A DNA stretch of 64,000 nucleotides from a virus (IMGVR_UViG_3300035674_000001:1-64000), one strand, 5' to 3'. Positions 7,780 through 60,010 are shown, counted from the stretch's first letter. Program-made: numbers and translations. Notes: a model not told the origin generated them from the letters alone.

Positions 7780-7783
7780 GCCT

Positions 7784-8197
7784 TCAGTTGCCTAATATAA
7801 CAATCCACGAGAAGTCTTCCATTGGACTAGTTTGGATTTTCATGACTTCAAATGGATAAAAAGTTTCACCGTCATCAAAAGACAGCTCCCAGTCGCGTTG
7901 AGGATCAATAAGCTTGTTGTAATTCTCGTGTTGAATAATTCTTACCTTGTAAAGAGTGGTTTTATCTTGAAAGTTAGGAAATTCTCTGAGGCTGTCATCA
8001 ATAGAGAGTTGCTGAATCTTAGGATTGCTATATCTTAGTTGACCTTTTGAGTCAGTCATTTGTTGTCCATTGATATCAAGCACTGGCTGAATGATTAGCT
8101 CGCCATCTATATGAAGTTGATAGTGACGATTCCAGCCAATACCATCAACAAAGCTAATAATGCTTCGAGCTAGATTTCCGGGAACGATATGACTCAT
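7784..8197 (-). CDS. virion-module protein (unknown function)
   Basis: 137-aa ORF. ATGA overlap with 8194..8460. Last gene of the operon 12080-7784. Confidence 0.55.
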   Translation of the reverse strand: MSHIVPGNLARSIISFVDGIGWNRHYQLHIDGELIIQPVLDINGQQMTDSKGQLRYSNPKIQQLSIDDSLREFPNFQDKTTLYKVRIIQHENYNKLIDPQRDWELSFDDGETFYPFEVMKIQTSPMEDFSWIVILGN

Positions 8198-8460
8198 TTG
8201 TTTTTAGACTCTGTGTATACAGATCCTCCGCAGTTAGTCGCTGATGGTAGTGTTGCACCATACGGCACGCCTCCGGCATTACTTAAGTTAATAACTTGTC
8301 CACTGCCACCATTAGAAAAAACACTAAATTCTTTGCCTGTTGCTGGATCTCTTTTTCCTTGCATTGTAGGCTGACAACTTGTTTTCTTTTGGGTTAACTT
8401 CATGTAACTACCCAAATTCTGAAGCTGGGATATTTGATTAAGTTCTCTCGCTGTTGCCAT
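8194..8460 (-). CDS. small virion-module protein
   Basis: 88 aa, G/S/T-rich. Start and stop abut neighbouring genes. Confidence 0.5.
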   Translation of the reverse strand: MATARELNQISQLQNLGSYMKLTQKKTSCQPTMQGKRDPATGKEFSVFSNGGSGQVINLSNAGGVPYGATLPSATNCGGSVYTESKNK

Positions 8461-24616: not shown

Positions 24617-25546
24617 CTAAATACCAACAAATATCCGAGCGGACATAGGGAAAGTTAACTCGACTCCACCCGTTGTTAACCGACAAGGTACACGCCAACC
24701 AAACCCAGCCTCTTGAGGCGCTTTAGCGTAAAAAGGAATTGGTACATGAAGTTTAATCTTGTCTTCACGTCTTTTGTAAACAATGGCTACGTCTTGACCA
24801 TTGAATGCGCCTTCAAGCCAGGGAACTTGCTGAATGTTCTGAATACCATCAGCACCTTGAGTTTTGAAGAAGGCTTCTTTGAGTGTAGTCTGAGGGTTTG
24901 TGGGTGATGTAAACGTCTGGCCTAAATAGAAATCCTGAATAGGGGGAATTAGTAGCGTATCAGCACTTTCCCTCATTTGAGATTCAATAGCAACAGCAGC
25001 GCTCATGTCTCGCAAGTCACGCAGAACTTGATAAGGCGTCTTATCTCGCCAACGAGTTGAGCCATTGACACCATCGTTTAGCAAGCTTGCAATTGGAATA
25101 TTTTCGTGATTGAGCAATCCTCTTAAGTTGTAAGCAGAGTCCCCCAAATACCCAACTTTCTCAAGCTTGACAAATGCTGCCTCTTTAGCGGCTAGACCTT
25201 TGGCGGCTGTCAAATCTACTCCAGCGAATTGAGCATGTTCTAAATCTTTATCGGAGTAACGGTAGCTATCTCCAATGTCATGCACAATGCCTGTCATGGG
25301 AAACGTGTAGAGATCTACTGTCGGTAGGTCGTCTGCTGGATTGGCGATGATTTTAGCTTCACCGACAAATGTTCGCAAATAATACAAGTAGCTGGACGCG
25401 CCTCTGGGAATTGCATTACCACCCGTAGCATATGGAATAATTAATCCGTTTGCCAGAGGAAATTCAGGTAAAGGGTAAGAGATTACATTTCTACGAACCG
25501 CTCTTAATTGCTCACTTACATAAACAGAGTAACTATTGTCCGGCAT
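24617..25546 (-). CDS. major capsid protein (DUF2184 / HK97-fold type)
   Basis: 309 aa. Follows the portal - DUF2213-like - small protein - capsid gene order. The sequence style (…DLYTFPMTGIVHDIGDSYRYSDKDL…VPWLEGAFNGQDVAIVYKR…) resembles DUF2184 capsid proteins as I recall them. Confidence 0.7.
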   Translation of the reverse strand: MPDNSYSVYVSEQLRAVRRNVISYPLPEFPLANGLIIPYATGGNAIPRGASSYLYYLRTFVGEAKIIANPADDLPTVDLYTFPMTGIVHDIGDSYRYSDKDLEHAQFAGVDLTAAKGLAAKEAAFVKLEKVGYLGDSAYNLRGLLNHENIPIASLLNDGVNGSTRWRDKTPYQVLRDLRDMSAAVAIESQMRESADTLLIPPIQDFYLGQTFTSPTNPQTTLKEAFFKTQGADGIQNIQQVPWLEGAFNGQDVAIVYKRREDKIKLHVPIPFYAKAPQEAGFGWRVPCRLTTGGVELTFPMSARIFVGI

Positions 25547-28388: not shown

Positions 28389-29298
28389 TATTCAAAGGCA
28401 CAAAATCGGTGCTGTTAAGATACCAGTATCTCCTATTAAAGATGGAGATGTTACTGTTTTAAGGTTAAGCGCCGTTGATATTGATTTGCCAGATATAGGA
28501 TCTAAGGCAATTGAAGAGTTAAAACAGCAAGCTACAACAGCTAAAAAAATTAGCGCCAATCAATTGCAGTATGCACAAGAGCGCTTTAAGATTGAGCAAG
28601 TTATTAAAGAGACAACAAGAAATTTAGAGTTAATTGAAAATGAAACTCGTTACAGAAAAGGAAGAGTAAGGCGTAATTTATTATGGCTAGAAGAAAGATT
28701 AAGCAAATATCCTGAAGAATTTCAAAAAGATGATTTACCAGCACCAAAAAGCTTTTCAGAATTAATTGAAACACGAATCAACTATAAATACAGCTCTGTA
28801 GACGCAGAATTCCGAGCAGCTCGTGTAGAGCGTGATTTAGGAGTAGCTCTTGGAACGTTTTCTTACTATACGCTTAAGCCGTTATTTTTTGCCAATGTCT
28901 ATAAGTCTAAATCTGGAGCAAGTAGCAGCAAAGATAGCAGCGGTTTTAAAAAACTATATGGCACATACAAGAACGAACAAGCTTTTCAGCTTCAATTAAA
29001 AGCATTTCTTTTAGCTTGTGAATTGGCTGGGGTAAGTGCAATACCTAGTCAAGGATGGCGCAAGGATGCCAAGAAGTACAAACCAACTGAATTTTCTAAA
29101 ATAGAACCTTCGCATATACAGCTAGCAGTAAAGACTATTAAGGCAGAGCTAAATATTACTGGTGAAAAGAAGCCTAGAGTTAAAGAATTTACTATCAAAG
29201 AACAAGAATTAGATGCTCGATGCACTCAACTTGAAATGCAACTAGCAGAATGGAAAGAATTTGCTTTGATGCTGCTAACCAACCTAAATCACACTTGA
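28372..29298 (+). CDS. hypothetical protein
   Basis: 308 aa. The ATG overlaps the end of the XRE gene. The 3' end overlaps the portal 3' end by 10 nt. Confidence 0.5.
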   Translation: MTTRFNIQRHKIGAVKIPVSPIKDGDVTVLRLSAVDIDLPDIGSKAIEELKQQATTAKKISANQLQYAQERFKIEQVIKETTRNLELIENETRYRKGRVRRNLLWLEERLSKYPEEFQKDDLPAPKSFSELIETRINYKYSSVDAEFRAARVERDLGVALGTFSYYTLKPLFFANVYKSKSGASSSKDSSGFKKLYGTYKNEQAFQLQLKAFLLACELAGVSAIPSQGWRKDAKKYKPTEFSKIEPSHIQLAVKTIKAELNITGEKKPRVKEFTIKEQELDARCTQLEMQLAEWKEFALMLLTNLNHT

Positions 29299-31160
29299 TT
29301 TTGCGGTGATGATTTACCCGCACCTTGCTCTCCTTGTTGAGCAGAAGATTGCTGTTGAGACTGATATTCTCTAGTGCTTTGGTTCTGTGAATTAGATAAA
29401 GATAACGTTTCGTTGATACGATTTGCTACAACATTTTCATTTACTTCATTGGATAAAGATGCTGCGATGCGCTGATCTTGCAGCATTTTTGTTAGGTCAA
29501 TAGTACTAAAAATATCAACCCCGGTAGCCAAGGCATTGGCTACTCCAAACTGAGTTAAAACTCCTCTGTCTAATAAATACGCAATAGCACGAGACAATAT
29601 TTCTTTTGTCTTTGCTTGCTGTTCTGGCGATTCAACAAAAATTGGCTCTCGTGTAACTTGCCATTTAGTTGGTTCGTTACCGTTTAGCGGGTTAGACTTA
29701 CATGCGTGCAAAATAGGGATTAATTCATCTTCAATTTGTGGCAACATATCTGAGCCTTGGCGAGTGAAAACATAATCACTCCAATCTTGCCGAGACTGAT
29801 TTCCTCCACCAGTATTGTTAGAAACCAGCGCAGAATTTAGCGCATCGCTAGAAGTTCTATTAAGTAGCAAACTTAATGGCAAGTCGCACGAACCCGCTGC
29901 CATTTGCGCTAAATGCTCTAATACTTTTTCTATGTTGGCGTAATTCCTAGAAAGTATTTCATATTTCTCATGCTCTCCATCTAGCGCTAATATGCCTAAT
30001 GCATGGCGCAAAAAAGCGATAGTACGCACATGCTCTTTAACTTGTTCTTTTTTTCCCGCAGCTATTTTTTTGGCGAGATCATGAATAAATAATACAGTCT
30101 GGCTAAAACTTTGCAAGCTAGATGCAATACAGTTTGAGCCTTGAATGAAATTAGTAATAGGGATAAACGCTCTGTCCATTACAGAATATCCCCATCCATT
30201 ATTGATTCGTCGGAGCTTCTTGTTTACTCTTCTACCGTGAAATGCTATTACCCGACTGGCATGAATAATATTATTTCCAGTTCGGCTTGTATTGTCAGCA
30301 CTATTAAAATTAACTTGATAAGTTTCTACCTTGCCATAATCTTTACTTGATGCATCTTGGTTGTAAGAACTAGCAATTAAATCTTCACTGGATAAGACAT
30401 TATAACCGTCTATGTCCCAGAGGCTATCTAAATCAAGCGGCTTGTCTATACCTGTACTGCCATCGTTAGCAAATAGCACAATTCCTGCTCCGCCTTGTTC
30501 TCTAGATTCTTCAAGCGCTTCTTGAATAAATGGCTTGATAGCTTTAAGTTTTTTCTGCATCCAGAGTGTCATTTTTAAGCCAGATTCACCCTGGACTAGC
30601 ATTTCTTCAATGATGCTTTGTAGCTGAACTGAAACAGCATGAAGGTTTGATGTAGGTAGATCTGAAGCTTGACTATTAAAAGTTTGTTCTAGATTAACTG
30701 GATCGCTTAGGCTAAATTCAGATACCCTGCCTTCGACTGAATGAACAGCTTGATTAATTGAACGTTCGATTAATGGTCTGATTTTTTCTAGCCTTGCTTG
30801 AGTTTCCGCGGATAAAATATTAGAATTTGAAGTATTGCATGAATAAGTAATAAACTTACTGCACATTGCAGCAGGCAGTATTTCAACTAAGTTGCCAAAA
30901 ATAAAGCTGTTGTGTCGCCATAGTGTACGCTGCCAGGGTGTTAAATTAACAGGTGAGATTCGCAAAGAGCTAGGGTTAAGCAAGTCTTTCCCAGCTTCTC
31001 CTAGACCAGAATGAAGGTTTACTAGTGCGTTATCGTGTTGAACCTGTTCAATAAAATCAGTGAGTGCATCTTGATGAAACGAAAACTGCTCATCTAATTG
31101 ATCTTGTAGACTAATATCTTTAGGCTCAAATGGATTAGCAAAAGGATTAGATTTAGGCAT
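29289..31160 (-). CDS. portal protein (DUF1073 type)
   Basis: 623 aa. Its size, its pairing with DUF2213/DUF2184-type genes, the core ...NNGWGYSVMDRAFIPITNF... and the Q/S-rich C-terminal tail support the call. Confidence 0.75.
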   Translation of the reverse strand: MPKSNPFANPFEPKDISLQDQLDEQFSFHQDALTDFIEQVQHDNALVNLHSGLGEAGKDLLNPSSLRISPVNLTPWQRTLWRHNSFIFGNLVEILPAAMCSKFITYSCNTSNSNILSAETQARLEKIRPLIERSINQAVHSVEGRVSEFSLSDPVNLEQTFNSQASDLPTSNLHAVSVQLQSIIEEMLVQGESGLKMTLWMQKKLKAIKPFIQEALEESREQGGAGIVLFANDGSTGIDKPLDLDSLWDIDGYNVLSSEDLIASSYNQDASSKDYGKVETYQVNFNSADNTSRTGNNIIHASRVIAFHGRRVNKKLRRINNGWGYSVMDRAFIPITNFIQGSNCIASSLQSFSQTVLFIHDLAKKIAAGKKEQVKEHVRTIAFLRHALGILALDGEHEKYEILSRNYANIEKVLEHLAQMAAGSCDLPLSLLLNRTSSDALNSALVSNNTGGGNQSRQDWSDYVFTRQGSDMLPQIEDELIPILHACKSNPLNGNEPTKWQVTREPIFVESPEQQAKTKEILSRAIAYLLDRGVLTQFGVANALATGVDIFSTIDLTKMLQDQRIAASLSNEVNENVVANRINETLSLSNSQNQSTREYQSQQQSSAQQGEQGAGKSSPQNQV

Positions 31161-34183: not shown

Positions 34184-36139
34184 CTAGCTTTTTATTGCAT
34201 CAAGCCTCTTAATCTCAGACAATGTAAACATCCAGCGAGTACTATCTTGGCTATCAGCATAAGATGCTGCGATGTGAAGCAAGATATCTCGAATTACTGG
34301 ATAATCATTTGGATCTACACGAATAGAATGACCCAGATGAATTGATTCGCTGATACTAGCCTTAAGGAACTCTAGTTTGTTAATTGGAACGCCGCCATGC
34401 AACTGAGCTAGCTGTATTAGATCAGTGTTGCCTACTAGTGCATCTAAATAATCAAATCCTAGCTCATCGGCAGTGAATAGCATCATACACATGTCAAAGA
34501 AATCGGGTGACTTTATCCCACGTCGCAGCATTTCTTTTTTGCTTTCAACTCGAATCTGACCCCTGTCTGTGTAGAAAAACTTCGGTGAGCTTAATTGACC
34601 TCTTAGTTCGGAATGGTAAGGCACTGCTATTAGCTCTTTTAGTGGATGCTGCTTACCTTTGGCAATAAACTCATATGTCTTCTCAAATCTTAGCCGTAGT
34701 CGCCAAGCGCACTCAGCTCTAAGATTCTTGAATATCTCTTTGCTTTCTCTGCCGCCGAACTCATCCCATATCTCGTTGGTGCATTCATAGTTTCCATTGA
34801 AGCCAGCATGTTCAAAGCGATAGTCTGCCGACTCTAGTACACCTGCGATACCAGCACCAACGCCAACATTGTCATAAATGAAGTTGGTTACACTAAATGC
34901 TTGGCAAAGCTCGATTGCTCTCCAAGCTGTCTCAGTTGTACCAGAATCACGCCAAGACTCAATGAGAATCAGGCAGATTCCCTCTCGAACACCAAACACG
35001 TTTTTGCTATTTCCTGAATAAGCTACGTCGAGCGCTCCAATACGAGAAGAACCAGTTACATCGAAAAAGGTCATTCTATTAACTAAGTTAGATCCAACTT
35101 TGGCGTGATAACTATCTTGGTATTCTTCGTGATTGTATTTATCAAGTCCAAGCAATTTACCTAATTGAATAGCAGCATCCACATGAATGGCTGGAATTAA
35201 TAAGTTTTCAGTACCGCCAGAATAATCAAGATTAATTTCTCTAGCAAAGACTACTGGATCAAGCGTCTCTCTATCTTTCTCGTAGTCTTTTTGAGAGTAA
35301 CTCAGATTGTCTTGATAAGTGAAAGTAAAAACAGAATACTTACCAGAGTTTCGTTTAGTAACAAAACTGTTACCTGTTGGATCTTTCGGAGGTGTACTGA
35401 CATAAATGACTGTGTTGGTGTTTTTGACTAATGCAGCATCAACTATATCAGCTCGTGCAATATAAGCGGCTTCATCAACGAAGTAGACTGTATTACGTCC
35501 ACCTCGACCCATTGAGTCGCCACCTTCGCCAGTGATCACGCTGTCATTAGCAGGATTCACAAGGCGCATAAACTTATTGTGCTTTGTCCACTTGAACCCA
35601 CTAGGTAGCATCCACCCCGGCAAGTGCCTTAGAATAATTCTCAGTTTCTCAAAGATGCAATCAGGGTCATCTGAGCGATCTACTAAATCTTCTACCCTAG
35701 AGCCAAATGCAGCCTTAAACCCCGGTTCAAACAACCAAGAATGAAGTGCATACGCACAGGACAAGTAAGTTAATCCTGCTCCTCTAGTTTTTTCAGCTAT
35801 CCCGGATTCTTTGTTAGCTCGACGTTCATCAATCCAGTTTAAATAATCTTTTTGGCGTGGATATAAAACTACAGGAATTAAAGCAGGTTTACTGGGTAAG
35901 TTTCTTGGCTCGTAGAAATAAACCCAGTTGTCGATCCAGTAAGCCTTGTTACGCCTGCACATCTCCATTTCGTAGGCTCTGAGGGTAGGCTTGTCGTTTA
36001 AGTTTTGCCATCGCTCACGTCGCCTAATGAGTAGGTCATTTAACAGGGAAACATTGTTAAAATTAGAACTAGATCGACTCTGATTAGTAGTATCTTGGGT
36101 ATTAGAATTAAATGGCTGATTGGAATATGGCAACGACAT
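34184..36139 (-). CDS. terL: terminase large subunit
   Basis: 651 aa. Walker A-like: EKTRGAGLTYLS. Walker B: NTVYFVDEAAYI. A C-terminal nuclease-type half is present, and the portal gene follows downstream on the same strand. Confidence 0.85.
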   Translation of the reverse strand: MSLPYSNQPFNSNTQDTTNQSRSSSNFNNVSLLNDLLIRRRERWQNLNDKPTLRAYEMEMCRRNKAYWIDNWVYFYEPRNLPSKPALIPVVLYPRQKDYLNWIDERRANKESGIAEKTRGAGLTYLSCAYALHSWLFEPGFKAAFGSRVEDLVDRSDDPDCIFEKLRIILRHLPGWMLPSGFKWTKHNKFMRLVNPANDSVITGEGGDSMGRGGRNTVYFVDEAAYIARADIVDAALVKNTNTVIYVSTPPKDPTGNSFVTKRNSGKYSVFTFTYQDNLSYSQKDYEKDRETLDPVVFAREINLDYSGGTENLLIPAIHVDAAIQLGKLLGLDKYNHEEYQDSYHAKVGSNLVNRMTFFDVTGSSRIGALDVAYSGNSKNVFGVREGICLILIESWRDSGTTETAWRAIELCQAFSVTNFIYDNVGVGAGIAGVLESADYRFEHAGFNGNYECTNEIWDEFGGRESKEIFKNLRAECAWRLRLRFEKTYEFIAKGKQHPLKELIAVPYHSELRGQLSSPKFFYTDRGQIRVESKKEMLRRGIKSPDFFDMCMMLFTADELGFDYLDALVGNTDLIQLAQLHGGVPINKLEFLKASISESIHLGHSIRVDPNDYPVIRDILLHIAASYADSQDSTRWMFTLSEIKRLDAIKS

Positions 36140-37012: not shown

Positions 37013-37480
37013 TTAAAATCCAACAGCGTGAATTGCGCTAGCTTCTCCTGCTTCTCTCATTCGTATTAGCATTTCCGCGTATTGCTTAGGAGTTAGAATA
37101 ACCCATTTTCCTGTAAAATCGGGAGTCAATCTCATTACTCTAAAGCTTTCAATGTCTCGCCAGCTCTCATCTTGCTTGTTAACTGGGTTAGGCTTGTCAG
37201 AAAGCTTGTACAGGCACAATAAAGCGGGTATACCAGCCATCTGAGCAAGATTCTGAGTTACCTGGTAGCCTTTGAAAGACTGACCAATATCTTGTGCTGT
37301 TTCAATTAACGCTATGGGTATTTTGCTGTATTTGTTGTATTCAATCCACATGCAGACATCAATGTCAATCATAGACAACTCATAAGCTCGTTTGTCTGAT
37401 ACGAATCGCTTAATTGAGTTCATGCGATGCCAAGCAGAATAAGATAAATCTATTTCGGTAAATTTTCTATTTTGAGGCAT
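37013..37480 (-). CDS. hypothetical protein (possible PD-(D/E)xK-like nuclease fold)
   Basis: 155 aa. The segment MIDIDVCMWIEYNKYSKIPIALIETAQD loosely fits D...E.K. Weak. Confidence 0.25.
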   Translation of the reverse strand: MPQNRKFTEIDLSYSAWHRMNSIKRFVSDKRAYELSMIDIDVCMWIEYNKYSKIPIALIETAQDIGQSFKGYQVTQNLAQMAGIPALLCLYKLSDKPNPVNKQDESWRDIESFRVMRLTPDFTGKWVILTPKQYAEMLIRMREAGEASAIHAVGF

Positions 37481-37522
37481 GGCTAATCAAGTTAGTTGTA
37501 AAAAGAATTAATAGACACAGAG

Positions 37523-37551
37523 AAGCCTGCGCTGTATTTGAGTGCAGGCTT
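37523..37551 (-). terminator. weak hairpin after 37564..38025
   Basis: AAGCCTGC-13 nt-GCAGGCTT. Confidence 0.4.
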
Positions 37552-37563
37552 AACGCATTTGAT

Positions 37564-38025
37564 TTATGTAGCGGATTGAATTGACTCTAAATCATATTCA
37601 AAGAGGTATCCATCAAATTGATCAAACAATTTAACTTCAGCTAATGATTGTTTTCCACCTCCAACTCGAATTAAAGCACCAGTATTGATGTACTTAACAA
37701 ACTCTTCACTTTCGTCACCCCAAGAATTTCCTATCAAGACTATCTTGTGATTAACTGGATACCAAATATCTTGCATTGATAGCGCCGTTTTGCAAGCAAA
37801 CCCAGTTGTTAAATATTTACGTTGACTTACCAACTCATAGGCCAAGCCAGGTATGCCAAGATTTGTTAAACCTGAGACAACTTCAATTTGCTGACCAGGA
37901 AAGCTGATTTGTGCAAAAATAATTTCAATCTCAGCAAAAGCTTCTATTAAACACCAAGTAGCAATTTGCCTATCAAATAACTGCTGACTGTATCCTACAA
38001 CTCCAACCTTAAATGTATCTAGCAT
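37564..38025 (-). CDS. Rossmann-like SLOG/LOG/DprA-superfamily protein (tentative)
   Basis: 153 aa. KVGVVGYS...IEVVSGLTNLGIPGLAYELV...IVLIGNSWGDESEEFV...GALIRVGGGKQS resembles LOG/DprA-type nucleotide-binding folds. Confidence 0.3.
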   Translation of the reverse strand: MLDTFKVGVVGYSQQLFDRQIATWCLIEAFAEIEIIFAQISFPGQQIEVVSGLTNLGIPGLAYELVSQRKYLTTGFACKTALSMQDIWYPVNHKIVLIGNSWGDESEEFVKYINTGALIRVGGGKQSLAEVKLFDQFDGYLFEYDLESIQSAT

Positions 38026-38054
38026 TGAACTAACTCGATATGTTTACATATTCA

Positions 38055-38082
38055 AGCTTAAAACATTATCAACAAAAGTCAA
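38055..38082 (-). promoter_or_regulatory. sigma70-like promoter TTGACT-16-TAAGCT (CTTGACTTT box) for 37564..38025
   Basis: On the minus strand: TTGACT (38082-38077), 16-nt spacer, TAAGCT (38060-38055). It lies just after the terminator at 38097-38123. Confidence 0.45.
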
Positions 38083-38096
38083 GCTGAGTACAGAAA

Positions 38097-38123
38097 AAAA
38101 CCCGCTAAAGTTTAGCGGGTTTT
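38097..38123. terminator. bidirectional rho-independent terminator
   Basis: AAAAAAACCCGCTAAAGTTTAGCGGGTTTT: a GC stem flanked by an A-run and a T-run. Confidence 0.9.
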
Positions 38124-38156
38124 GCTATATATCATTTGGCGACTAAACTAGATTGG

Positions 38157-38735
38157 TTACTTAAAATCTAGTCTGCTTAACTTTAAGTAACCAATTTGGC
38201 ATGCGGCATAGTCAAAGTCAGCAAGTGCTTTAAAAGGAATCCATTCGTTTTCGCTAACTGACTCAAAATAAGTGCCGTCTCCTTGTGGGTTTGATGGTTG
38301 CAGATTTGATACATCCGCACAATACAAATAAACAACTTCATTGGTTTGAGTACCAACAATGTAACTGCCAAAGTGACTCAATTGAGCTAGTGAGAGATCA
38401 TATCCTGCCTCTTCCATTGCTTCTCGCTTAGCTGCCATTCTGGTAGCCTCGTGGTTATCTATGCTGCCAGTGATAGGACAAACAAAAAGCGCTTGGTTGT
38501 CAGTGTTGTCTACTGGTAAAGGTTGAAGCCTAATTAGAACCTCGTACTTCTTCTCTACAGAAGTGTCTTTAGCTTGACGCAAAAGAAAAACGGCTACAGA
38601 ATCTTTTCCCTTGCGCTCTAAAAAGAAAAACCCCAGTTTGGTTTGTTTAACGGTAACCCAAGGTGGATTAGACTGGTAAACAATTCGCTCATTAAACTGG
38701 TCAAATTCTTGATTAATTGAATTAGCATCAGTCAT
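38157..38735 (-). CDS. Nudix hydrolase
   Basis: Complete Nudix box GSIDNHEATRMAAKREAMEEAGY (G-x5-E-x7-REUxEExGU). ATG 38735 is preferred over the GTG at 38741. Confidence 0.85.
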   Translation of the reverse strand: MTDANSINQEFDQFNERIVYQSNPPWVTVKQTKLGFFFLERKGKDSVAVFLLRQAKDTSVEKKYEVLIRLQPLPVDNTDNQALFVCPITGSIDNHEATRMAAKREAMEEAGYDLSLAQLSHFGSYIVGTQTNEVVYLYCADVSNLQPSNPQGDGTYFESVSENEWIPFKALADFDYAACQIGYLKLSRLDFK

Positions 38736-38756
38736 TTGCACTTTCCTTGTTGTTGC

Positions 38757-39158
38757 TTAGTTATTAGATTTATTCGGCTGTGGATCAGTATCAAACACTA
38801 TTTCTTCTGCAACCTCAGCTAACTCTTCGTGAAGTACAGCAACCCAGATAAGGGGGTCGAGTTGCGCTGGAAATGTGCGATTGAATTTCTTGTCTTGTTC
38901 ACAGCGTTCTAGCAAAATCTGAGCCAAGATATATTTCTCTGCTTCTTTTTGAGACAGATTTGGGTTCTGCGCCATACGAAAATCTGTTAGTGCTGCCACT
39001 GCAACAGCAGCAAGTTGAATCAACTCTTTCTGATAGTTTTCAGCATTTGGTATTTGACGTTTGCCATAAAGCTCAAGGGTTGGCGTATCTAGAAGATATC
39101 TAAACCTGCTGCCTAGCTCTTTAAGTTGATTGGTAAGTAGCAATAAAACTCGTTCCAT
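38757..39158 (-). CDS. MazG-like all-alpha NTP pyrophosphohydrolase (tentative)
   Basis: 133 aa, helical. VAVLHEELAEVAEEI resembles the EExxE metal-binding helix of MazG-type enzymes. Confidence 0.45.
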   Translation of the reverse strand: MERVLLLLTNQLKELGSRFRYLLDTPTLELYGKRQIPNAENYQKELIQLAAVAVAALTDFRMAQNPNLSQKEAEKYILAQILLERCEQDKKFNRTFPAQLDPLIWVAVLHEELAEVAEEIVFDTDPQPNKSNN

Positions 39159-39198
39159 TGTCTTTACTGATTGTGGATTTGAATCTGCAATAATTTAA

Positions 39199-40179
39199 TC
39201 AATCGGTACAATTGCAAGGCGCATTTTCTTGATCAACAGAAAACACATCTTTAAAAATGCGTTGACCAAGACTGGCATTTTTCTTGAATGTGTGTTTTGT
39301 TTTAGCCTCTAAATCCATCCAATTAGGCAAGCGTTCAGGGTAGATTTTTGTTTGCTCTTTTAGCTCTTCATTGGTCTTGTAAAAGCAGTAGACACAATTA
39401 GAAATTGAGGGAAAAGCATAATCCCAGTTCCGTTTTTCCCAGTAGCAATAAACATCGCTAGAAGTAATCCTCTTTGAATACAGAGGAAATGAGCGAATAC
39501 GCCACTCGGTATTTTTCCATCGATGGCAACCTGCAAACTGACCAATCAAGTCGCAGCAAAAAGAAAACTCAAAACTATCGCAGGAATTAGAGTCTTTTTC
39601 TAATCCTAATGCTCGATAAACTCTTCGAGGTTCGTCGTATCTAAATCCTATTTGAACTTCGATAGACAAAGGGTTCGGAACAAAAGAAAAGTCATTTTCA
39701 GGAATTGCTTTACTTAGGTTTAAGTAAGCATCCCAAAACATTGGTTCATACTTAAGGTATTGAGTGCAGATTCGTGCTTCTGAAGACGGCAGCCTACCCT
39801 TCTTTTCTATTAGCTGCTCAAAAGTTAACTCAGATGCTACCCACCTAATAGGTTGTTGCAACTCTTGTTCAAGTTGTAAAACAACTTTAAGAGAATCATC
39901 AACCTCGTGCGAAGCTTCAAACCAAGGTATGCGCTTTTGGCACTCCCGAAACAATCCTTTGTCTTTTGGCTTTGCGTTAGGATCGCTTGTCAAAACAACA
40001 GCAAATTGGTAGAAATATGGACGCTTATCATTAGGGTTTTTGTTAAGCGCCATATAAGTTGAAGTTTTTCCACTTGAAACAGAAACAACAACTTTATCAG
40101 CAATACCCTCAATTTCAGCTAAGTGACGATCTGCTTGAATCGTTCTTCTATCGTATTCACTTAAGTCGAATAGTGTCAT
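39199..40179 (-). CDS. PAPS-reductase / PP-loop ATP-pyrophosphatase superfamily protein
   Basis: Degenerate PP-loop VVVSVSSGKTSTYM (canonical SGGKDS). ARICTQYLKYEP matches the C...K..P motif of PAPS reductase and DndC. C-terminal Cys cluster: CVYCFYK...CNC. Confidence 0.6.
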   Translation of the reverse strand: MTLFDLSEYDRRTIQADRHLAEIEGIADKVVVSVSSGKTSTYMALNKNPNDKRPYFYQFAVVLTSDPNAKPKDKGLFRECQKRIPWFEASHEVDDSLKVVLQLEQELQQPIRWVASELTFEQLIEKKGRLPSSEARICTQYLKYEPMFWDAYLNLSKAIPENDFSFVPNPLSIEVQIGFRYDEPRRVYRALGLEKDSNSCDSFEFSFCCDLIGQFAGCHRWKNTEWRIRSFPLYSKRITSSDVYCYWEKRNWDYAFPSISNCVYCFYKTNEELKEQTKIYPERLPNWMDLEAKTKHTFKKNASLGQRIFKDVFSVDQENAPCNCTD

Positions 40180-40202
40180 GATAGTTGTGCAATCTGAATG
40201 TT

Positions 40203-42503
40203 TCAGACTTGCTTCAGGTTGGCTTCACCCCAAGCAAACAAATCACCTTGCGCCGATTCTTTTTCAGCACGTCCCATGTTTTTCAGTGCCTCATTGAAAT
40301 AGCTTTCTTTGAGTTCAATGCCAAGGTACTTTCTTGATTGCTTGATTGCTTGGTATCCTGTAGAACCAATACCGTTAAATGGATCAAGCACTAAGTCGCC
40401 AGGATTAGACCATAGCTGGATTGAGCGTTCAATTACCTGGAGCTGAAGAGGTGCAATATGCCTTTCATCACTATCTTCTTTGGCAAACCGACCAGTCAAC
40501 GTGTCCGATGGGTTAATATCCATCCACACAGGCGAAGCATAGCGCTGCCAAACTTCAACACTATTTCGCTGCACGTCACCAACTAACTTGATATCGTCGC
40601 TGCCAGCATAGTAGGTTAATTCACCAGTAATTGGCTCAGGATTGTTTCCTGGTTTACGAAAAACAACAAGGGTATCGGGTATCCCTTGGCGACTCATTGC
40701 ACTATCTTTAACTACTTGTTTATGCAACAGTCCTAGCGCTTTAGTTCGCTGCATAGCTTGCACTGGATTTTTCCAGATGCAAACTTCACTGTGATAAATC
40801 CAGTCTTTTGACTGAAACATACGAATCACGTCACCCCGAAAGTCTCGTAACCCAATGTAGCCATCTCGCGACTTAAGGGTAGGTAGATTCATGAGATGAA
40901 CAGCGCATAATCGACCGGGTATCGTAATGCGATAAAGTTGCTCTACTAAATAATCAAAATGAGCTGCAAACTGCTCATCACCTGTACAGTTACCTATGTC
41001 ACGAACTGAGCTTGAGTACACGTACAGATTAGCAAAGGGGATTGATGTCACTGTTAGATGTATACAGTTATCTGGCAACTTAGTTGTTATTTCAACACAG
41101 TCCCCTAGATAAAGAGTCCAGTCCTGTCCTTGTTTAACAGTTGTTTTGTATTCCATTTCACTTCTTTCTAGTGACATTTGCTGAACTTGAGTTGCCTTTG
41201 CCATTTCGTTTACCATTTGCTTTGCCATCTCATCTGCCTCTGTTTGCTTTCTTTGTAAGTTACGAGCAATAGCGCTTTCTAGCTTGTCGTAAACCAGATA
41301 AACAGTAACGTCACACTTTTGACCAAATCTGTAGCATCGTCCTACTGTCTGATGGAAGCTTTCCCATGAATGATTCAGACCCACAAATGCCATGTTGTGA
41401 CAATTTTGCAGGTTTAAACCAAAGCCAAACATACTTGGCTTACTGATAAGTACTCGCTTCTTACCTGATGTAAAGTCAAGAACTGCCTGCTCTTTATGTT
41501 CGTCAGAATCACTGCCTTTTACTTCTACAGCATCAGGAATCAATTGAGTTAGCAGCTTAGACTCATCATTGAGATCGCACCAAACTAACCATTGCTCGTT
41601 GCTTGGATTAACTAACTTAGCCGTCTCTTCGCATCGTTGCTTGAGTGTTTGTTTTTTGACATGACGCTGCTCACTTAAAGAAGATGCTTCATAGAAGAAT
41701 AATGCGCCATCAGGTGGTTCAATTTGAGTTTCAATGGTATGGTGAATTATTTCCAGATTAGGCAACACATACGCCTTGTCGGTTTCGGTAAAACCTAGGT
41801 CACCAGGACGCCGAAACATCAATGACCAAGATGCTACCCACTCCCAGAATCGAGCTTGAGCATGTTTCTTGAGTCTCCACTGCGATGTTTTCCCGCCATC
41901 GTGGGTAAAAAACATCGCCAGCATTTCTTCGCGCGTTAACGCACCCACCCATTCAGAATGGTTGCCTAGCTCCATGTAGTCGTTTGGTGCAGGGGTAGCC
42001 GTACAGGCTAGCTTATAAGGAGTAGATGCAAAGCTTTCAAGTAGCTCACTAGTTGTTTTGCTCTCAAAGTGTTTGATGCAAGATGACTCATCAAGCACAA
42101 CTCCCGCAAACTGACTAGCATCAAACCTGGCTAGTTTTTCGTAGTTCGTGATAAAGATGTTGCCATTATGATCTGCAATATCTTCTGGGTTAGCAACATA
42201 CTTGACTGAGATGCCAAACTTTTCACCCTCACGAACAGTTTGCTGCGTTACTGCTAGGGGTGCGAGTATTAGTACTTTGCCTCCCGTGTATTTTGCAACG
42301 TGAAAACTCCATTCAAGTTGCATAAGCGTCTTACCTAGTCCTACACCAGCAAATAAACAATACTTGCCTTTGGCTAGTGCAGTTTTAACAGCAAACTGCT
42401 GGAAATCAAACAAGGATGGGTTTAATTTATGTTCTTCAACAGTAAAGCCAGATGGTTTGACTACAATGCGTTTTTGCTCAAGAAAGTCTTGATAATTGCT
42501 CAT
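40203..42503 (-). CDS. SNF2-family helicase fused to a C-terminal beta-class N6A/N4C DNA methyltransferase
   Basis: Helicase motifs: GVGLGKT (I), VVLDESSCIKH (II), ACTATPAPNDYMELG (III), FGFGLNLQ (V), QTVGRCYRFGQ (VI). Methylase motifs: TSIPFA (IV) then LVLDPFNGIGSTG (I). Start ATG 42503 (MSNYQDFLEQK) is preferred; alternatives are 42533 and 42560. Confidence 0.85.
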   Translation of the reverse strand: MSNYQDFLEQKRIVVKPSGFTVEEHKLNPSLFDFQQFAVKTALAKGKYCLFAGVGLGKTLMQLEWSFHVAKYTGGKVLILAPLAVTQQTVREGEKFGISVKYVANPEDIADHNGNIFITNYEKLARFDASQFAGVVLDESSCIKHFESKTTSELLESFASTPYKLACTATPAPNDYMELGNHSEWVGALTREEMLAMFFTHDGGKTSQWRLKKHAQARFWEWVASWSLMFRRPGDLGFTETDKAYVLPNLEIIHHTIETQIEPPDGALFFYEASSLSEQRHVKKQTLKQRCEETAKLVNPSNEQWLVWCDLNDESKLLTQLIPDAVEVKGSDSDEHKEQAVLDFTSGKKRVLISKPSMFGFGLNLQNCHNMAFVGLNHSWESFHQTVGRCYRFGQKCDVTVYLVYDKLESAIARNLQRKQTEADEMAKQMVNEMAKATQVQQMSLERSEMEYKTTVKQGQDWTLYLGDCVEITTKLPDNCIHLTVTSIPFANLYVYSSSVRDIGNCTGDEQFAAHFDYLVEQLYRITIPGRLCAVHLMNLPTLKSRDGYIGLRDFRGDVIRMFQSKDWIYHSEVCIWKNPVQAMQRTKALGLLHKQVVKDSAMSRQGIPDTLVVFRKPGNNPEPITGELTYYAGSDDIKLVGDVQRNSVEVWQRYASPVWMDINPSDTLTGRFAKEDSDERHIAPLQLQVIERSIQLWSNPGDLVLDPFNGIGSTGYQAIKQSRKYLGIELKESYFNEALKNMGRAEKESAQGDLFAWGEANLKQV

Positions 42504-42586: not shown

Positions 42587-43045
42587 ATGAGTAAAGTCTT
42601 ATCAGCAGATTTAATTTCACAAATAAATCAACTAAAGGAGCAAATTAAGCTCTTTTGTGAAGTACAGCCAGGAAAGCAGTGGTATATCAAGAATGAATGG
42701 TTGGGAGACACTTCATTTGTTCATCTTTACCTGAGACGTTCTCTGAGAATGATTGGCAACGCTGATATTATCGACGTGATGCAAGGCTCATCCAATGCAA
42801 TAATCGAGGCGCTAGATATAGCCGCAATATCTGTTCACCCAGATTATCAGCGAAAAGGAATTGGAAGCCAAATAATTAACTATTGCCACGAAATCAATCC
42901 CAAGTCAATGACCTATATTGAGATGGTCAATAATCCTCATTTACAGCAATGGCTACAAAGAAACAATTGGGAAAAGTACACAATTGGAACTACAGGAGGC
43001 GAGCTTACAATAACCAGCTACTTTAAACTCAAGCAGAAGCAATAG
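42587..43045 (+). CDS. GNAT-family N-acetyltransferase
   Basis: Motif A: ISVHPDYQRKGIGSQIINYC. 152 aa. Confidence 0.7.
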   Translation: MSKVLSADLISQINQLKEQIKLFCEVQPGKQWYIKNEWLGDTSFVHLYLRRSLRMIGNADIIDVMQGSSNAIIEALDIAAISVHPDYQRKGIGSQIINYCHEINPKSMTYIEMVNNPHLQQWLQRNNWEKYTIGTTGGELTITSYFKLKQKQ

Positions 43046-43061
43046 GCAATAACCTGCAATC

Positions 43062-43100
43062 AATAACCCCTGCTAGTTAAGTTATTTAGCAGGGGTTATT
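43062..43100. terminator. bidirectional hairpin terminator
   Basis: AATAACCCCTGCTA-11 nt-TAGCAGGGGTTATT followed by GATGTTTT. It lies between convergent genes. Confidence 0.85.
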
Positions 43101-43129
43101 GATGTTTTAGCTTGTTACTTGCCAATCAG

Positions 43130-43555: not shown

Positions 43556-44044
43556 TTACTCACCTTTGCCTAAACTTGACTTTTTCATATTACTGGACAT
43601 TTTAGCCAAATGAAAGCTTTTAAGTGTTGTTTCTGGATTAGTTAATAGCGCATCACCTCTATGGTAAACAACGGCACCTCCAGTATTAGTACCAGACAAC
43701 TTAGTTAAAGCCTCAAAAAGCTTCTTGCTTTGTTTGTCAGTTAAGTAGAGAGTGGCGGGTTTGCAGCCATAGGGACATTTCATTTTCGGCGCAACATTGC
43801 CAAACAATCGACAAATTAAAGGACGATGTTCGTAAATGGTACATCTACCTTCAACTAAAGCAGAACATGAGCCTTTCGCTTCGTTATAACTGGGAACCTC
43901 TAACCCAGCATCTCTAATAGCATTTGCTTCAGCAGGATAAAGAGGAATAAGTGTACAGCCTGAAGAGCAGTAGCCTTTGCAATTCAATGCTGGTACTTGA
44001 TCGTAAACATCCTTTAGGGTTCTAAGCTTAGGCGGTTTAGTCAT
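43556..44044 (-). CDS. YkgJ-type (UPF0153) cysteine-cluster protein
   Basis: CKGYCSSGC...CSALVEGRCTIYEHRPLICRLFG matches the CxxCxxCC / C.iY..RP..CR.f pattern. Confidence 0.6.
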   Translation of the reverse strand: MTKPPKLRTLKDVYDQVPALNCKGYCSSGCTLIPLYPAEANAIRDAGLEVPSYNEAKGSCSALVEGRCTIYEHRPLICRLFGNVAPKMKCPYGCKPATLYLTDKQSKKLFEALTKLSGTNTGGAVVYHRGDALLTNPETTLKSFHLAKMSSNMKKSSLGKGE

Positions 44045-45298: not shown

Positions 45299-45392
45299 CC
45301 TTTATTCATCTAATAGCATAACACTTGCATTGATTTAGCTAATTTTTTCACTTAAAATACTACAAGCAATCTTGACTTTCTTTTTAAGAGTT

Positions 45393-47426
45393 ATGCAGCA
45401 ATTAAATCTTGACTTATCAATTCCCAAACAACCTGAAAAAGAGATTGTCTTACACAAATTCCAGGTACGTGCTAAAAAAGAAACTTATCAGCGCATCAAA
45501 GAAGGCTACAAACGTATCTTGGTAATCGCTTTAATGCGTTTTGGAAAAACGTATTTAGCTGGTTGGATGATTCGTGATGCCAACCGCAAAAACAAAAGAT
45601 GTTTGGTGTTGCTTGACCGAGAATGCTTGGTAAGTCAAACCCCTGATGACTACAGAGATTTAGGCTTAGATCCGCTAGTTTACCAGGGTAAGCAAAACAA
45701 AGAGAGTATAGAGCTAAAGACTGCGCCAGTAGTCATTGCCAGTATTCAAACTATCGAAACAAGAATCAGGTTAGCCAAGAAAAAAGGTATTGAGATTACA
45801 GCCAGAGATTTGCTGGGTGACTTTGATGTAATTCATGTAGATGAAGCACATCTTGTAGCTTTCAGGGATGGCTACAAACATATTCAAGATACTTATTTAG
45901 CCAATGGTGCTATCTTCATTGGCTATACGGGTACCATCTGGCGGGTAAATAAGAAAGAGTACATGGGAATGCACTTTGATATTGCCGTCATTGGAGCGCA
46001 ACCGCCGGAGTTAGTTGCAGATGGTCGAGTTGCATGGGGTCGGTTTTTCTGTCCTGGCAGCTATTTTGACTATACAAAGCTAGATGAACGAGAAGGAGAC
46101 TACACTGATAGCTCAGTTGAGAAGCAAGCTGTTACTGAAGAGAACTTAGAAACAGCACTATATAACTTTAAGAAATACTTTGTTGATGCAAATACCAATG
46201 AGGTAAAGCGCATTTCACTAGGATTTTGCGTAACTGTCAAGCACGCTAAAGCTATTTGTGATTATTTTACTCAGGCTGGATATCCTTGTGAATTCTTGAC
46301 TGGCATGACAAAGCGAGAAGAACGACAAGCAATGTACCAGCGACTAAAAGACAAAAAGACTAAGGTGCTTTTCAGTGTAAGTGCTTTGGGTATTGGACTT
46401 AACTTACCATTCGTAGATGGCATCCTGTATCTAAGACCCACTAAGTCACAATCATTATTCTTTCAGTCAGTCTGTCGAGCTGCTACCGCATACCCAGGTA
46501 AAAAGTTCTGGATGTGTCTAGACTTTGGCGATAACTTCGGCACTCGATTTCCGCATCCACTAGCACTACAAGATTATGACATATCTAAACCTAAAAACCG
46601 CAAACACGTAGAAATGTATAAAATATGTCCTGTTGATCGAGGTGGGTGTGGTGAGCAAGTAAGTAAGTTTGCTCGTGTTTGTCCCGAATGTGGATATGAG
46701 TTTGTTGTAGACAAAGAAGAAGAGGAAGAAGAGCTAGATTTAGATCCAGGAGTAATAGAATTAGTAGAAATTCTTTCAGTAGAAGATCAGGCAAGAATCA
46801 AGTGGTTTAGAAAGTTAAGGCGCAATGCCTACCTAGAAGAAACTTCACCGCATGAGCCAACTAAGTTGTTTTATCAAAAATACGGCTTTGAGCCGCCTGA
46901 AGACTGGTATTACAAAGCTTGCTTAGGTAAACGAAAGAATCATTCTGCACAAGCCATAGCAAAGCTACGAAAGTATTTTGCTCATTGGCAAACTACCGAT
47001 TACTGGAGCTGGACTAGTAACCAGATGGTGCTAGAGTTTGGAACGTTACAAAAGCAGCGAGAAGAGCAAGAACGCGAAGAAAGAGAAGCAGAAGCTAAAA
47101 AGCAGCGAGAAGAGAAGAGACGCCAACAAAAAGAGCAGCAAGAGCAATGGCGCAAGCAATACGAAGACTATGTAAACTCTTGGCATAATCAATTTAGAAG
47201 CAGCACTAACCAAGTTCATTGGTGGATGACTCTTTTGGGTATAGATAGGCAAAATACATTACAAGAAGCCAAAAAAGCCTATATGCAACTAGCCAAGAAG
47301 TATCACCCTGACACTAAAGCTTATTCAACAGATATTGCCGACTGGACTGATGAGCAGATTACTGAAAAGATGCAAGAAATTAATAATGCATGGGAAATAG
47401 CAAAAGCTTGCTTGAGCAAAAAGTAA
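45393..47426 (+). CDS. SF2 DEAH helicase with zinc ribbon and C-terminal J-domain (DnaJ-like)
   Basis: Walker A: LMRFGKTYLAG. DEAH box: IHVDEAHLV. Also YTGT and LGIGLNLP...QSVCRA. Zinc ribbon: CPVDRGGCGEQ...CPECGYEF. An E/R/K/Q linker leads to the J-domain LLGIDRQNTLQEAKKAYMQLAKKYHPDT...MQEINNAWEIAK, which carries the HPD tripeptide. ATG 45393. Confidence 0.8.
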   Translation: MQQLNLDLSIPKQPEKEIVLHKFQVRAKKETYQRIKEGYKRILVIALMRFGKTYLAGWMIRDANRKNKRCLVLLDRECLVSQTPDDYRDLGLDPLVYQGKQNKESIELKTAPVVIASIQTIETRIRLAKKKGIEITARDLLGDFDVIHVDEAHLVAFRDGYKHIQDTYLANGAIFIGYTGTIWRVNKKEYMGMHFDIAVIGAQPPELVADGRVAWGRFFCPGSYFDYTKLDEREGDYTDSSVEKQAVTEENLETALYNFKKYFVDANTNEVKRISLGFCVTVKHAKAICDYFTQAGYPCEFLTGMTKREERQAMYQRLKDKKTKVLFSVSALGIGLNLPFVDGILYLRPTKSQSLFFQSVCRAATAYPGKKFWMCLDFGDNFGTRFPHPLALQDYDISKPKNRKHVEMYKICPVDRGGCGEQVSKFARVCPECGYEFVVDKEEEEEELDLDPGVIELVEILSVEDQARIKWFRKLRRNAYLEETSPHEPTKLFYQKYGFEPPEDWYYKACLGKRKNHSAQAIAKLRKYFAHWQTTDYWSWTSNQMVLEFGTLQKQREEQEREEREAEAKKQREEKRRQQKEQQEQWRKQYEDYVNSWHNQFRSSTNQVHWWMTLLGIDRQNTLQEAKKAYMQLAKKYHPDTKAYSTDIADWTDEQITEKMQEINNAWEIAKACLSKK

Positions 47427-58498: not shown

Positions 58499-60010
58499 AT
58501 GTCAGAAAAATTAGAAGTAAAATACATTCCTCTTAGTCAGGCTGTGCTACTGGAGATAAATCCCAAAAAGCATGATATGGGTGGCTTAATAGAATTAATT
58601 AAGTTACATGGCTTTAAAGATCCGCCAAAGTGGGAACCGCAACTCAATAACGGCAACGGTGGCATCGTAGAAGGCAATGGCAGAATAGAGGCTTTGTCTG
58701 TCATGTATGGCATGAAAGAAGACAAGCCTAGGGGTATCTTGGTCAATTCTGAAACAAACGAATGGCTAGTACCTGTACTGTTTGGGGTAAATTCTGAGAG
58801 TGAACAAGCAGCGCTGGCTTATTCTATTAGCCATAACGTATCTACGATGGCTGGCGGAGATTTTGAGCTGAGTGATTACTTAAAGCTTTATGACCAAGAA
58901 GAATTTATTGATTTAGCTATTAACTTAGCCGAACAAGATTTCTATGCCTTGCCATTTGATGGTGATGACATAGACAGCTTGAAAGCCATTCGTGAGTCTT
59001 GGTTTAAAGACAACCAGCAGGTTACAGAAGAAGATGACTCTGAAGATCTAGATGAGCTTGAGAGTGACATTAGCGAGCTAGACAACACTCTAAGCGAATC
59101 AGAAATAAAATCACGGGTAAACAAAGGCGAGTTGTGGCAGGTTCGCGCAGCAGATTCAACTCACTTGATTATGTGTGGTGATTGTCGGGACTTTGCTGAT
59201 GTATACAAGCTCATAGGTCAAAGAGAAGTGAATCTTGTTTTTACTTCTCCTCCGTATGCATCGCAAAGAAAGTACGATGAGTCATCTGGATTTAAGCCAA
59301 TTAAGCCTAATGAATACTTAACTTGGTTTAAATCTGTTCAATTGAATTTGCACAAGTTCTTAGCAAAAGATGGCAGTTACTTTCTTAATATCAAATCTCA
59401 CGTAGAAGAAGGGAAAAGAAACCTTTATGTAAATAAGCTGGTAATTGCTCATGCAGAGGATTGGCACTGGCACTTTATTGATGAGTTTTGTTGGACTAAA
59501 TCAGGAATGCCAGGTAGTTGGAAAAATAGGTTTAAGAACGGTTGGGAACCTGTTTTTCACTTTGCATTAACTGACGATATTAAGTTTAGACCCGATAACG
59601 TCTTGCGTAAGCCAGAAGGAGGAAAAGCGAAAGTAAAATTTGATGCTGTCAAAGATAACGTCAACTCTGATTATTGGTTTCATTCTAATGATTCCAAAGA
59701 ACTAGAAGGCGCGTTACCCAGCAACGTGATCAGTGTCAACTCAATGGCACTAGACAATAAAGTACTGGGTAACAAAAAGTTAGGACACGCTGCACCGTTC
59801 CCAGTTGCTTTACCTGATTTCTTTATCAGAGCATTTAGTGATGTTAATGACTGGGTATTCGAGCCATTTGCTGGTTCAGGTACGGTCGCTATTGCATCGC
59901 ATCGTAACCGACGAAACTCACTTAATATGGAAATCTCGCCAGGATACTGCAACTATATCCTAACGAGATTAGAAAAAGAAACAGGCTCTAAAGCTGAGTT
60001 AGTTAATTAG
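58499..60010 (+). CDS. ParB-like N-terminal domain fused to an N6A/N4C DNA methyltransferase
   Basis: ParB/nuclease-like N-terminus (IPLSQAVLLEINPKKHD...IVEGNGRIEAL). Methylase motif IV: VFTSPPYASQ. Motif I: VFEPFAGSGTVAIA. Confidence 0.85.
   Translation: MSEKLEVKYIPLSQAVLLEINPKKHDMGGLIELIKLHGFKDPPKWEPQLNNGNGGIVEGNGRIEALSVMYGMKEDKPRGILVNSETNEWLVPVLFGVNSESEQAALAYSISHNVSTMAGGDFELSDYLKLYDQEEFIDLAINLAEQDFYALPFDGDDIDSLKAIRESWFKDNQQVTEEDDSEDLDELESDISELDNTLSESEIKSRVNKGELWQVRAADSTHLIMCGDCRDFADVYKLIGQREVNLVFTSPPYASQRKYDESSGFKPIKPNEYLTWFKSVQLNLHKFLAKDGSYFLNIKSHVEEGKRNLYVNKLVIAHAEDWHWHFIDEFCWTKSGMPGSWKNRFKNGWEPVFHFALTDDIKFRPDNVLRKPEGGKAKVKFDAVKDNVNSDYWFHSNDSKELEGALPSNVISVNSMALDNKVLGNKKLGHAAPFPVALPDFFIRAFSDVNDWVFEPFAGSGTVAIASHRNRRNSLNMEISPGYCNYILTRLEKETGSKAELVN

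Follow-up and report, generated by a model that had tools for sequence, protein, structure and literature searches.

A SNF2-fused DNA methylase gene adjoining a NinC-type PAPS-reductase-fold gene in an apparently mosaic interval of a tailed phage or prophage

Phage genes of the 3'-phosphoadenosine 5'-phosphosulfate (PAPS) reductase type have been treated by other authors as sulfur auxiliary metabolic genes or as in need of study, and lambda ninC, annotated as a PAPS reductase family protein, is non-essential and has no known function. The writers of DNA phosphorothioation (Dnd, Ssp and BREX type 4) all require a PAPS-domain protein together with a P-loop nucleoside triphosphatase (NTPase) (PMC12914056). 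When a gene for a PAPS-reductase-domain/Dam fusion and its adjacent gene were swapped into a Vibrio podophage, the phage plated on a Dnd host, and the gene pair was named an anti-Dnd system (Piel et al., bioRxiv 10.1101/2021.05.05.442762); a 2026 paper on PAPS reductases in anti-CRISPR-associated operons cites this finding (PMC13551039). Nudix, SLOG, Macro and NADAR domains co-occur in phages, sometimes beside terminase or portal genes, and have been proposed to degrade immune signals derived from ADP-ribose (Iyer, Burroughs, Aravind and colleagues, 2022; PMC9503650). Here we describe six minus-strand genes, g1 to g6, at positions 37,013 to 42,503 of a viral DNA of 64,000 nucleotides (IMGVR_UViG_3300035674_000001:1-64000, the window; Table 1), which an initial annotation had taken as one operon and a candidate DNA-modification or nucleotide-pool system. 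With modest confidence, we read the whole interval as a mosaic anti-defence and nucleotide-handling island of independently acquired genes, including a restriction-evasion pair formed by g1 and g2.

The open reading frames (ORFs) of the window were scanned against Pfam, PHROGs, NCBIfam and PADLOC, several of them giving no match at all. The SNF2 motor fused to a beta-class amino-methyltransferase that had been ascribed to g1 was recovered by Pfam (DEAD, ResIII, SNF2-rel and Helicase_C domains together with N6_N4_Mtase, E 2e-18) and by PHROGs (phrog_16, E 1e-77). Motor motifs are GVGLGKT at residue 53, DESS at 138, TATP at 168 and GRCYRFGQ at 388, and methylase motif IV (SIPF, residue 487) lies N-terminal of motif I (FNGIGST, residue 709), which is the beta-class order. 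The catalytic SIPF replaces the usual (D/N/S)PP(Y/F), and its leading serine may, we presume, indicate N4-cytosine specificity. An alternative TTG start lies at 42560. The protein is 55% identical to gp40 of Synechococcus phage S-CBS3 across 97% of the protein, and 310 phage records contain a g1 relative; the neighbours of S-CBS3 gp40 are small hypothetical genes only. In an archaeal-enrichment phage, Caudoviricetes sp. vir525 (locus L154, 4992-7546), the gene directly after a g1 homologue encodes a nucleoside 2-deoxyribosyltransferase, whose family belongs to the TIR/DrHyd/SLOG clade; vir525 thus has another motor-methylase beside a nucleotide-processing Rossmannoid gene.

The PP-loop/PAPS-reductase fold proposed for g2 is upheld by matches to phrog_424 'PAPS reductase' (E 2e-17), to SspD in PADLOC (2.7e-9) and to NinC. 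Its motifs are SVSSGKTS at residue 33, RICTQYLKYEP at 136, IGFRYDEP at 177, SNCVYCF at 260 and a C-terminal PCNCTD; six cysteines are kept across the g2 alignments, in which the C-terminal CxCTD is also conserved. P22-type NinC is matched by the g2 profile at 36 bits, with four motifs in common, so that g2 is, on this comparison, a divergent and enlarged NinC-type protein; searching with an intermediate family member brings up 'NinC' genes of Salmonella and Escherichia as well as genes of Vibrio crassostreae phages. Word-sharing homologues numbered only 11 among 5.8 billion proteins, and a degenerate-pattern scan returned 485 relatives in IMG/VR and 27 in GTDB genomes. PDB sequence and profile searches gave no significant match for g2, g3, g5 or g6, and an AlphaFold2 (AF2) model of g2 from a 10-sequence alignment was of low confidence (predicted local distance difference test, pLDDT, 43).

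Other genomes were examined at 118 loci with a g2 relative and 23 with a g5 relative, plus loci of g1 and g3 relatives. De novo clustering of the neighbours at the 118 g2-type loci placed methylases at the top (N6_N4 at 34/118 and C5 at 19/118, 51/118 together), and the further recurrent neighbours were genes typical of nin regions, namely RusA, VRR-NUC, NinG, a DnaA-C helix-turn-helix protein, a DnaD-like loader, Erf, DnaB and terminase. To control for position in common, the loci were de-replicated to 57 groups and methylases counted per available flank-kb; density fell from 0.11 within the first kb to about 0.05 between 1 and 4 kb and 0.018 between 4 and 8 kb, a roughly 6-fold gradient (Poisson P 3e-6, Fisher P 4e-4), and the methylases lying within 1 kb were co-directional with the g2-type gene in 11/11 cases. 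In the window, 23 nt separate the end of the g1 methylase domain from g2, which follows on the same strand, so that both adjacency and co-direction are seen. In several phages and prophages of Bacteroidota (L060, L086/087, L105, L113), SNF2-methylase fusions like g1 occur at distances of 1.6-4.4 kb from a g2 relative. Directly downstream of the closest g2 homologues (63-69% identity) is a 264-aa DarB-like methylase-domain protein (phrog_10089, E 4e-39), which argues that a methylase partner is retained though its type changes. The dependence runs from the PAPS-like gene to the methylase and not the reverse, as four sampled g1-homologue loci had no PAPS-like gene.

Three further observations concern the surroundings of g2 homologues. 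On the metagenomic phage contig with the closest homologue (L001), a DndB-family gene (PF14072) lies 1.6 kb upstream and the DarB-like gene directly downstream (7336-8349, 11143-11943), an order that hints at a tie between the g2 clade and phosphorothioate-system conflicts. Phage contigs with g2 homologues contain an IS605 OrfB / Cas12f-like TnpB gene (L002 18257-19471, L003 16206-17420). A phrog_34986 protein is encoded directly upstream of a g2 relative in one phage (L005 9165-9992; E 1.5e-70), and a weak match to the same family directly upstream of a g3 relative in another (L011 9125-9988; E 3.5e-6).

The six ORFs occupy the coordinates first given for them, all on the minus strand, with gaps of 23, 40, 15-21, 131 and 83 nt, in agreement with the co-oriented and closely packed arrangement already described. 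They do not form one operon as had been supposed: a strong terminator downstream of the Nudix gene g4 makes g1-g4 one unit, leaves g5 and g6 outside it and splits the genes into two or three transcription units. Of the terminator and promoter placed between g4 and g5, the terminator was confirmed and the promoter was not, a consensus scan finding none 3' of the terminator. Except for terminator hairpins, repeats in the region look like chance matches.

Nor do the genes travel together. Within 5 kb at the 118 g2-type loci, phmmer and hmmsearch detected no relative of g3, g4, g5 or g6, nor of the genes adjacent to the interval for a GNAT acetyltransferase and a CxxCxxCC protein; there were zero Nudix-box ORFs and only one marginal MazG-like match. 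The closest g2 homologues sit in five other phage contexts, each without g1, g3, g4, g5 and g6. At the 23 g5-type loci, many of them in jumbo phages, there was no Nudix box, MazG-like or PAPS-like gene, and a g3 homologue (55% identity) occurs in a different phage without any other of the six. With the combination never repeated at g2, g5, g1 or g3 loci, the idea that the six make one system is not supported, and the combination is, as far as the compared sequences indicate, unique to this phage because the interval is a mosaic. The earlier remark that this was not a described system holds for the exact six-gene combination and not for its parts, as PAPS-methylase and Nudix-SLOG pairings have both been published.

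Table 1. Positions of the six genes and of other features of the window, counted from its first nucleotide.
Feature	Coordinates	Strand	Description
g1	40203..42503	minus	SNF2-type superfamily 2 (SF2) ATPase (~residues 1-460) and beta-class N6-adenine/N4-cytosine DNA methyltransferase (~460-766)
g2	39199..40179	minus	PAPS-reductase-fold protein, DndC/SspD-related, divergent member of the lambda/P22 NinC family (phrog_424)
g3	38757..39158	minus	MazG-like all-alpha nucleotide pyrophosphohydrolase, circularly permuted, acidic HEELAEVAEE helix intact
g4	38157..38741	minus	Nudix hydrolase; in-frame ATG at 38735
g5	37564..38025	minus	Standalone SLOG-superfamily protein, LDcluster4 type
g6	37013..37480	minus	Small protein; family common to early-region proteins of Pelagibacter podophages
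Intrinsic terminator	38123-38097	minus	12-bp stem, 5 G-C pairs, 3-nt loop, T-run; downstream of g4, closes the g1-g4 unit
GNAT acetyltransferase	42587-43045	plus	Divergent from g1
Inverted repeat	43059-43103		22 nt, 91% complementary; probably a bidirectional terminator
CxxCxxCC (PF03692) protein	43556-44044	minus	Metal-binding protein, beyond the inverted repeat
Helicase	45372-47426	plus	684 aa, ResIII/Helicase_C, internal zinc ribbon, C-terminal DnaJ (J) domain; unusual fusion
Second DNA methylase gene	58499-60010	plus	503 aa; N6_N4_Mtase (E 1.5e-34) at residues 244-487, ~240-aa N-terminal region without assignment
Endolysin gene	4491-6083		
Erf gene	12930-13967		
DnaB gene	14896-16308		
Major head protein gene	24617-25546		
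Portal gene	29289-31160		
Large terminase gene	34184-36139		

These gene calls identify the window as a tailed-phage genome or prophage. Its terminase is about 33% identical to the nearest relatives, a DNA-level search found no close isolated phage, and all six proteins are singletons at 90% identity. A cyanobacterial host is suggested as likely by g1 and g2, whose nearest homologues come from Synechococcus phages, Nodularia phages and a Microcoleus metagenome-assembled genome (MAG). The window has no tRNA and no Rfam element, and the idea of an RNA element in the region was dropped accordingly. The helicase beside a g2 homologue in a Nodularia phage was considered as a g1 homologue and rejected, as it matches the window's DnaJ-domain helicase instead; homologues of the latter are this 'helicase' of Nodularia phages and, in the Microcoleus MAG, a gene close to the g2 homologue.

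Fold assignments were borne out for five of the six genes (g1-g5). For g3 itself every Pfam model stayed below detection, and only three word-sharing homologues were found; a profile search of 1.84 billion representatives gave 1353 relatives, and among 60 sampled, 6/60 match Pfam MazG (best E 2.4e-4) and 1/60 PRA-PH. The description of g3 as MazG-like is therefore probably right, by a transitive argument, through the relatives that match MazG and PRA-PH. Split hidden Markov model alignments of g3 and relatives P0062, P0075, P0068 and P0074 reveal two forms of the family related by circular permutation: in most relatives (~100 aa) the order is [ER.RQD.KFG]-[W..L.EE.GEV]-[Y..ELIQVAAVA], and g3 and some others begin with the ELIQ.AAVA helix. 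Alignment of g3 with one annotated dATP/dGTP diphosphohydrolase using hhalign was uninformative. IMG/VR scans for close relatives of g3, g4 and g6 returned none, and 50,697 phage records searched by tblastn with g3 and g4 gave no match.

The canonical Nudix box reported in g4 is present, with a Pfam NUDIX (PF00293) score of 32.2 bits against a cut-off of 21.1 and a perfect box (GX5EX7REUXEEXGU) at residues 92-114, GSIDNHEATRMAAKREAMEEAGY. The best solved relatives, all weak, fall in the NudK/NudF/ADP-ribose pyrophosphatase group (PDB, E 0.002-0.02). The ADP-ribose pyrophosphatase subgroup of Nudix enzymes has a conserved proline about 15-16 residues past the box; in g4 the stretch past the box reads DLSLAQLSHFGSYIVGTQTN, with a glycine at the position of NudK's proline, and this mark of the subgroup is missing.

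The LOG/DprA-like Rossmann protein foreseen for g5 can be narrowed to SLOG LDcluster4. The g5 sequence itself falls below the Pfam threshold with no direct match; PF18306 (SLOG LDcluster4) is carried by 5/21 of its homologues (38-45% identity), and the glycine-rich loops are in place. Its motifs are VGVVGYS, VSGLTNLGIP, GDES and VGGGKQSLAE, of which VGVVGYS, SGLTNxG, GDES and GGGKQS are invariant or nearly so in the alignment, and its relatives include gp345 of Bacillus phage G and a protein of Sinorhizobium phage Phosso.

The nuclease fold suggested for g6 was not confirmed. No PDB, Pfam or PHROG match was found, the single-sequence AF2 model was unusable (pLDDT 37), and similarity was to Pelagibacter podophage proteins (tblastn E 1e-3 to 7e-2). 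An alignment of seven sequences has 19 invariant columns, among them D39, D41, E47, E60 and K70, a set that points to a PD-(D/E)xK motif without establishing one. In Pelagibacter phage HTVC034P (gp12-gp10; L148 496-1851), 220 bp separate a g6 homologue from a NinC-type PAPS-reductase gene upstream of it. At no other place were relatives of two of the six genes seen together; five other pelagiphages have a g6-like gene without a PAPS gene.

The proposed mosaic island would have the large terminase gene on one side and the replication genes on the other. Within it, the SNF2 motor of g1 would move along phage DNA while the methylase modifies adenine-N6 or cytosine-N4, masking restriction sites. 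The g2 protein may neutralise or bypass phosphorothioate-reading restriction (Dnd, Ssp, BREX type 4), in line with the genetic effect of the PAPS-Dam region in a Vibrio phage. Restriction evasion, including evasion of phosphorothioate-dependent restriction, is the most likely service of g1 and g2 together. Co-transcribed with them and with no evolutionary link to them, g3 and g4 would most likely hydrolyse free nucleotides, the outcome being either cleaning of the deoxynucleoside triphosphate (dNTP) pool or destruction of nucleotide-derived host signals, for example ADP-ribose derivatives. The separately transcribed g5 could be an enzyme or sensor for nucleotides or ADP-ribose derivatives, which would fit the published Nudix/SLOG counter-signalling idea. 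The DNA-modification system envisaged in the initial annotation thus plausibly survives in its g1-g2 half, through the methylase neighbours, the DarB-like partner and the anti-Dnd precedent, and falls away as a system of six genes. In phage accessory regions, nucleotide-enzyme genes that look like a tidy operon can prove to be a mosaic and not a pathway, and caution in reading them is warranted.

This account draws on gene content, folds and motifs, the unit boundary, the lack of six-gene co-occurrence and the linkage between PAPS-fold and methylase genes, and a number of points weigh against it. The biochemical activities and the anti-defence role are all ones we infer. The g2 protein has no Pfam or NCBIfam match, the first of which counts against the reading, and its ATP pyrophosphatase chemistry is uncertain because the aspartate of the PP-loop is replaced: g2 has SSGKTS, its relatives and NinC have SGG(K/R)(T/S)S, and the serine-glycine loop of the canonical SGGxDS is kept. 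Most g1 relatives have no PAPS-like gene nearby, and the enrichment of methylases around g2-type genes may come partly from a shared position in nin-like early regions and not from function. Tight spacing and co-transcription of g1-g4 would also suit a functional link that arose too recently, or occurs too seldom, to register as co-occurrence. The podophage protein p0018 of Vibrio crassostreae resembles the g1-g2 pair in that a phage PAPS-fold module is physically linked with a DNA methyltransferase, and it is the sole such pairing with genetic evidence (escape from Dnd, when swapped in along with the adjacent gene p0019). The likeness is one of domain content: the p0018 protein is a fusion with a Dam-class enzyme whereas here two genes stand 23 nt apart and the methylase is a beta-class N6_N4 enzyme on a SNF2 motor.

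Among the alternatives, it is unlikely that g1 and g2 lay down a phosphorothioate or other sulfur- or adenylate-dependent self-mark, with g2 as the DndC/SspD analogue, the g1 ATPase in place of DndD/SspC, a host cysteine desulfurase supplying the sulfur and g3/g4 clearing nucleotide by-products. Phosphorothioate synthesis needs a PAPS-domain protein and an NTPase (PMC12914056), and an ATPase gene does lie 23 nt upstream of g2, which is SspD-related, with six conserved cysteines, a motif resembling a PP-loop and a CxC tail at the C terminus; SNF2-methylase fusions also recur a few kb from g2 relatives in several Bacteroidota phages. Yet no DndA, DndD, DndE, SspB, SspC, BrxC, BrxZ, BrxL or cysteine desulfurase was recognised among the scanned window ORFs, where a very divergent partner is possible; a SNF2 partner is lacking for most g2 relatives and a PAPS partner for most g1 relatives, the PP-loop aspartate is replaced, and g3 and g4 are never found beside g2 relatives. 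The narrower proposal that g1 and g2 are a minimal phage writer of a non-methyl mark, most plausibly phosphorothioation (the SNF2 motor standing in for DndD/SspC, sulfur from the host, g3/g4 in support), is slightly less likely again. Were it true, a phage could counterfeit the host 'self' mark against Dnd, Ssp and BREX type 4.

Ordinary housekeeping or auxiliary metabolism, in which g2 would be a PAPS reductase of sulfate assimilation, g3/g4 would serve dNTP sanitation and g1 would be an orphan methylase for the control of replication or packaging, is comparably improbable. Such genes in phages are often read as sulfur auxiliary metabolic genes, and lambda ninC is dispensable, but neither g2 nor 9 of its relatives matches Pfam PAPS_reduct (PF01507), even at E <= 1. 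CysH ends in a redox ECGLH tail, unlike the PCNCTD of g2, which thus differs from CysH-type PAPS/APS (adenosine 5'-phosphosulfate) reductases at both points; the recurrent neighbours of g2-type genes, moreover, are DNA enzymes and methylases and not sulfur-pathway genes. The least probable alternative is a single hypermodification pathway in which the MazG and Nudix enzymes convert (d)NTP to (d)NMP, g2 adenylates or thiolates the base, g5 exchanges or trims it and g1 finishes the product on DNA. Pyrophosphohydrolases do feed known phage base-replacement pathways, and g1-g4 are tightly spaced with one terminator in common. Against this, the families never co-occur in the 118, the 23 or the other loci, g5 and g6 lie outside the transcription unit, and the scanned window ORFs yielded no recognisable nucleotide kinase, thymidylate-synthase-like enzyme, transglycosylase or dedicated polymerase. 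An evasion pair within a mosaic island remains the reading we prefer.

NinC-type 'PAPS reductase' genes are widespread in phages and usually annotated as sulfur metabolism, and their mechanism, that of lambda ninC included, is unexplained. Because their most consistent partner is an adjacent co-directional methyltransferase of any class, a role on DNA or against restriction would suit them better than sulfur assimilation. The window, probably from a cyanobacterial phage, shows the pairing cleanly as two genes, the methylase being fused to a motor.

Compared with the described systems, the interval resembles the sets of Iyer et al. in the juxtaposition of a standalone Nudix and a standalone SLOG gene 1-2 kb away from the large terminase gene, and in that the best solved relatives of g4 are ADP-ribose/NDP-sugar (nucleoside diphosphate-sugar) pyrophosphatases. 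It differs in that g5 is of LDcluster4 and not of the YpsA-like clade emphasised there, in that g5 relatives have no Nudix neighbour, and in that scanning of the window ORFs brought up no recognisable Macro or NADAR domain. With MazG-like enzymes such as cyanophage MazG, g3 shares the acidic EExxE helix, but its helix order is permuted and it has an extra N-terminal segment of ~40 aa. Likeness to DndC, SspD and BrxP consists in the local similarity of g2 to SspD, a PP-loop-like motif and several conserved cysteines; the PP-loop differs as described, and g2 is encoded in a phage and not in a defence island. P1 DarB, like g1, combines a helicase-type ATPase and a DNA methylase in a single polypeptide. 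It is about three times larger, has another domain order and is packaged in the virion, whereas g1 has 766 aa and an N-terminal motor followed by a C-terminal methylase, and so is not of DarB-type size or domain order. Homology of g1 to the phrog_16 fusions (S-CBS3 gp40) is full-length, and to our knowledge no member of that fusion family has been functionally characterised. NinC and g2 have in common the motif set SxSGG(K/R)TS, CT..(L/M)K..P, G(F/I)R.DE and NC(V)(Y/F)C and their genomic niche, surrounded as both are by genes of replication, recombination and nin type; NinC has ~280 aa versus 326 aa in g2, whose extras are an N-terminal extension, internal insertions and the conserved C-terminal CxCTD. 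The best-supported description of g1 and g2 is thus a new architectural variant of a known, mechanistically unsolved phage pair, a methylase with a NinC/PAPS-fold protein.

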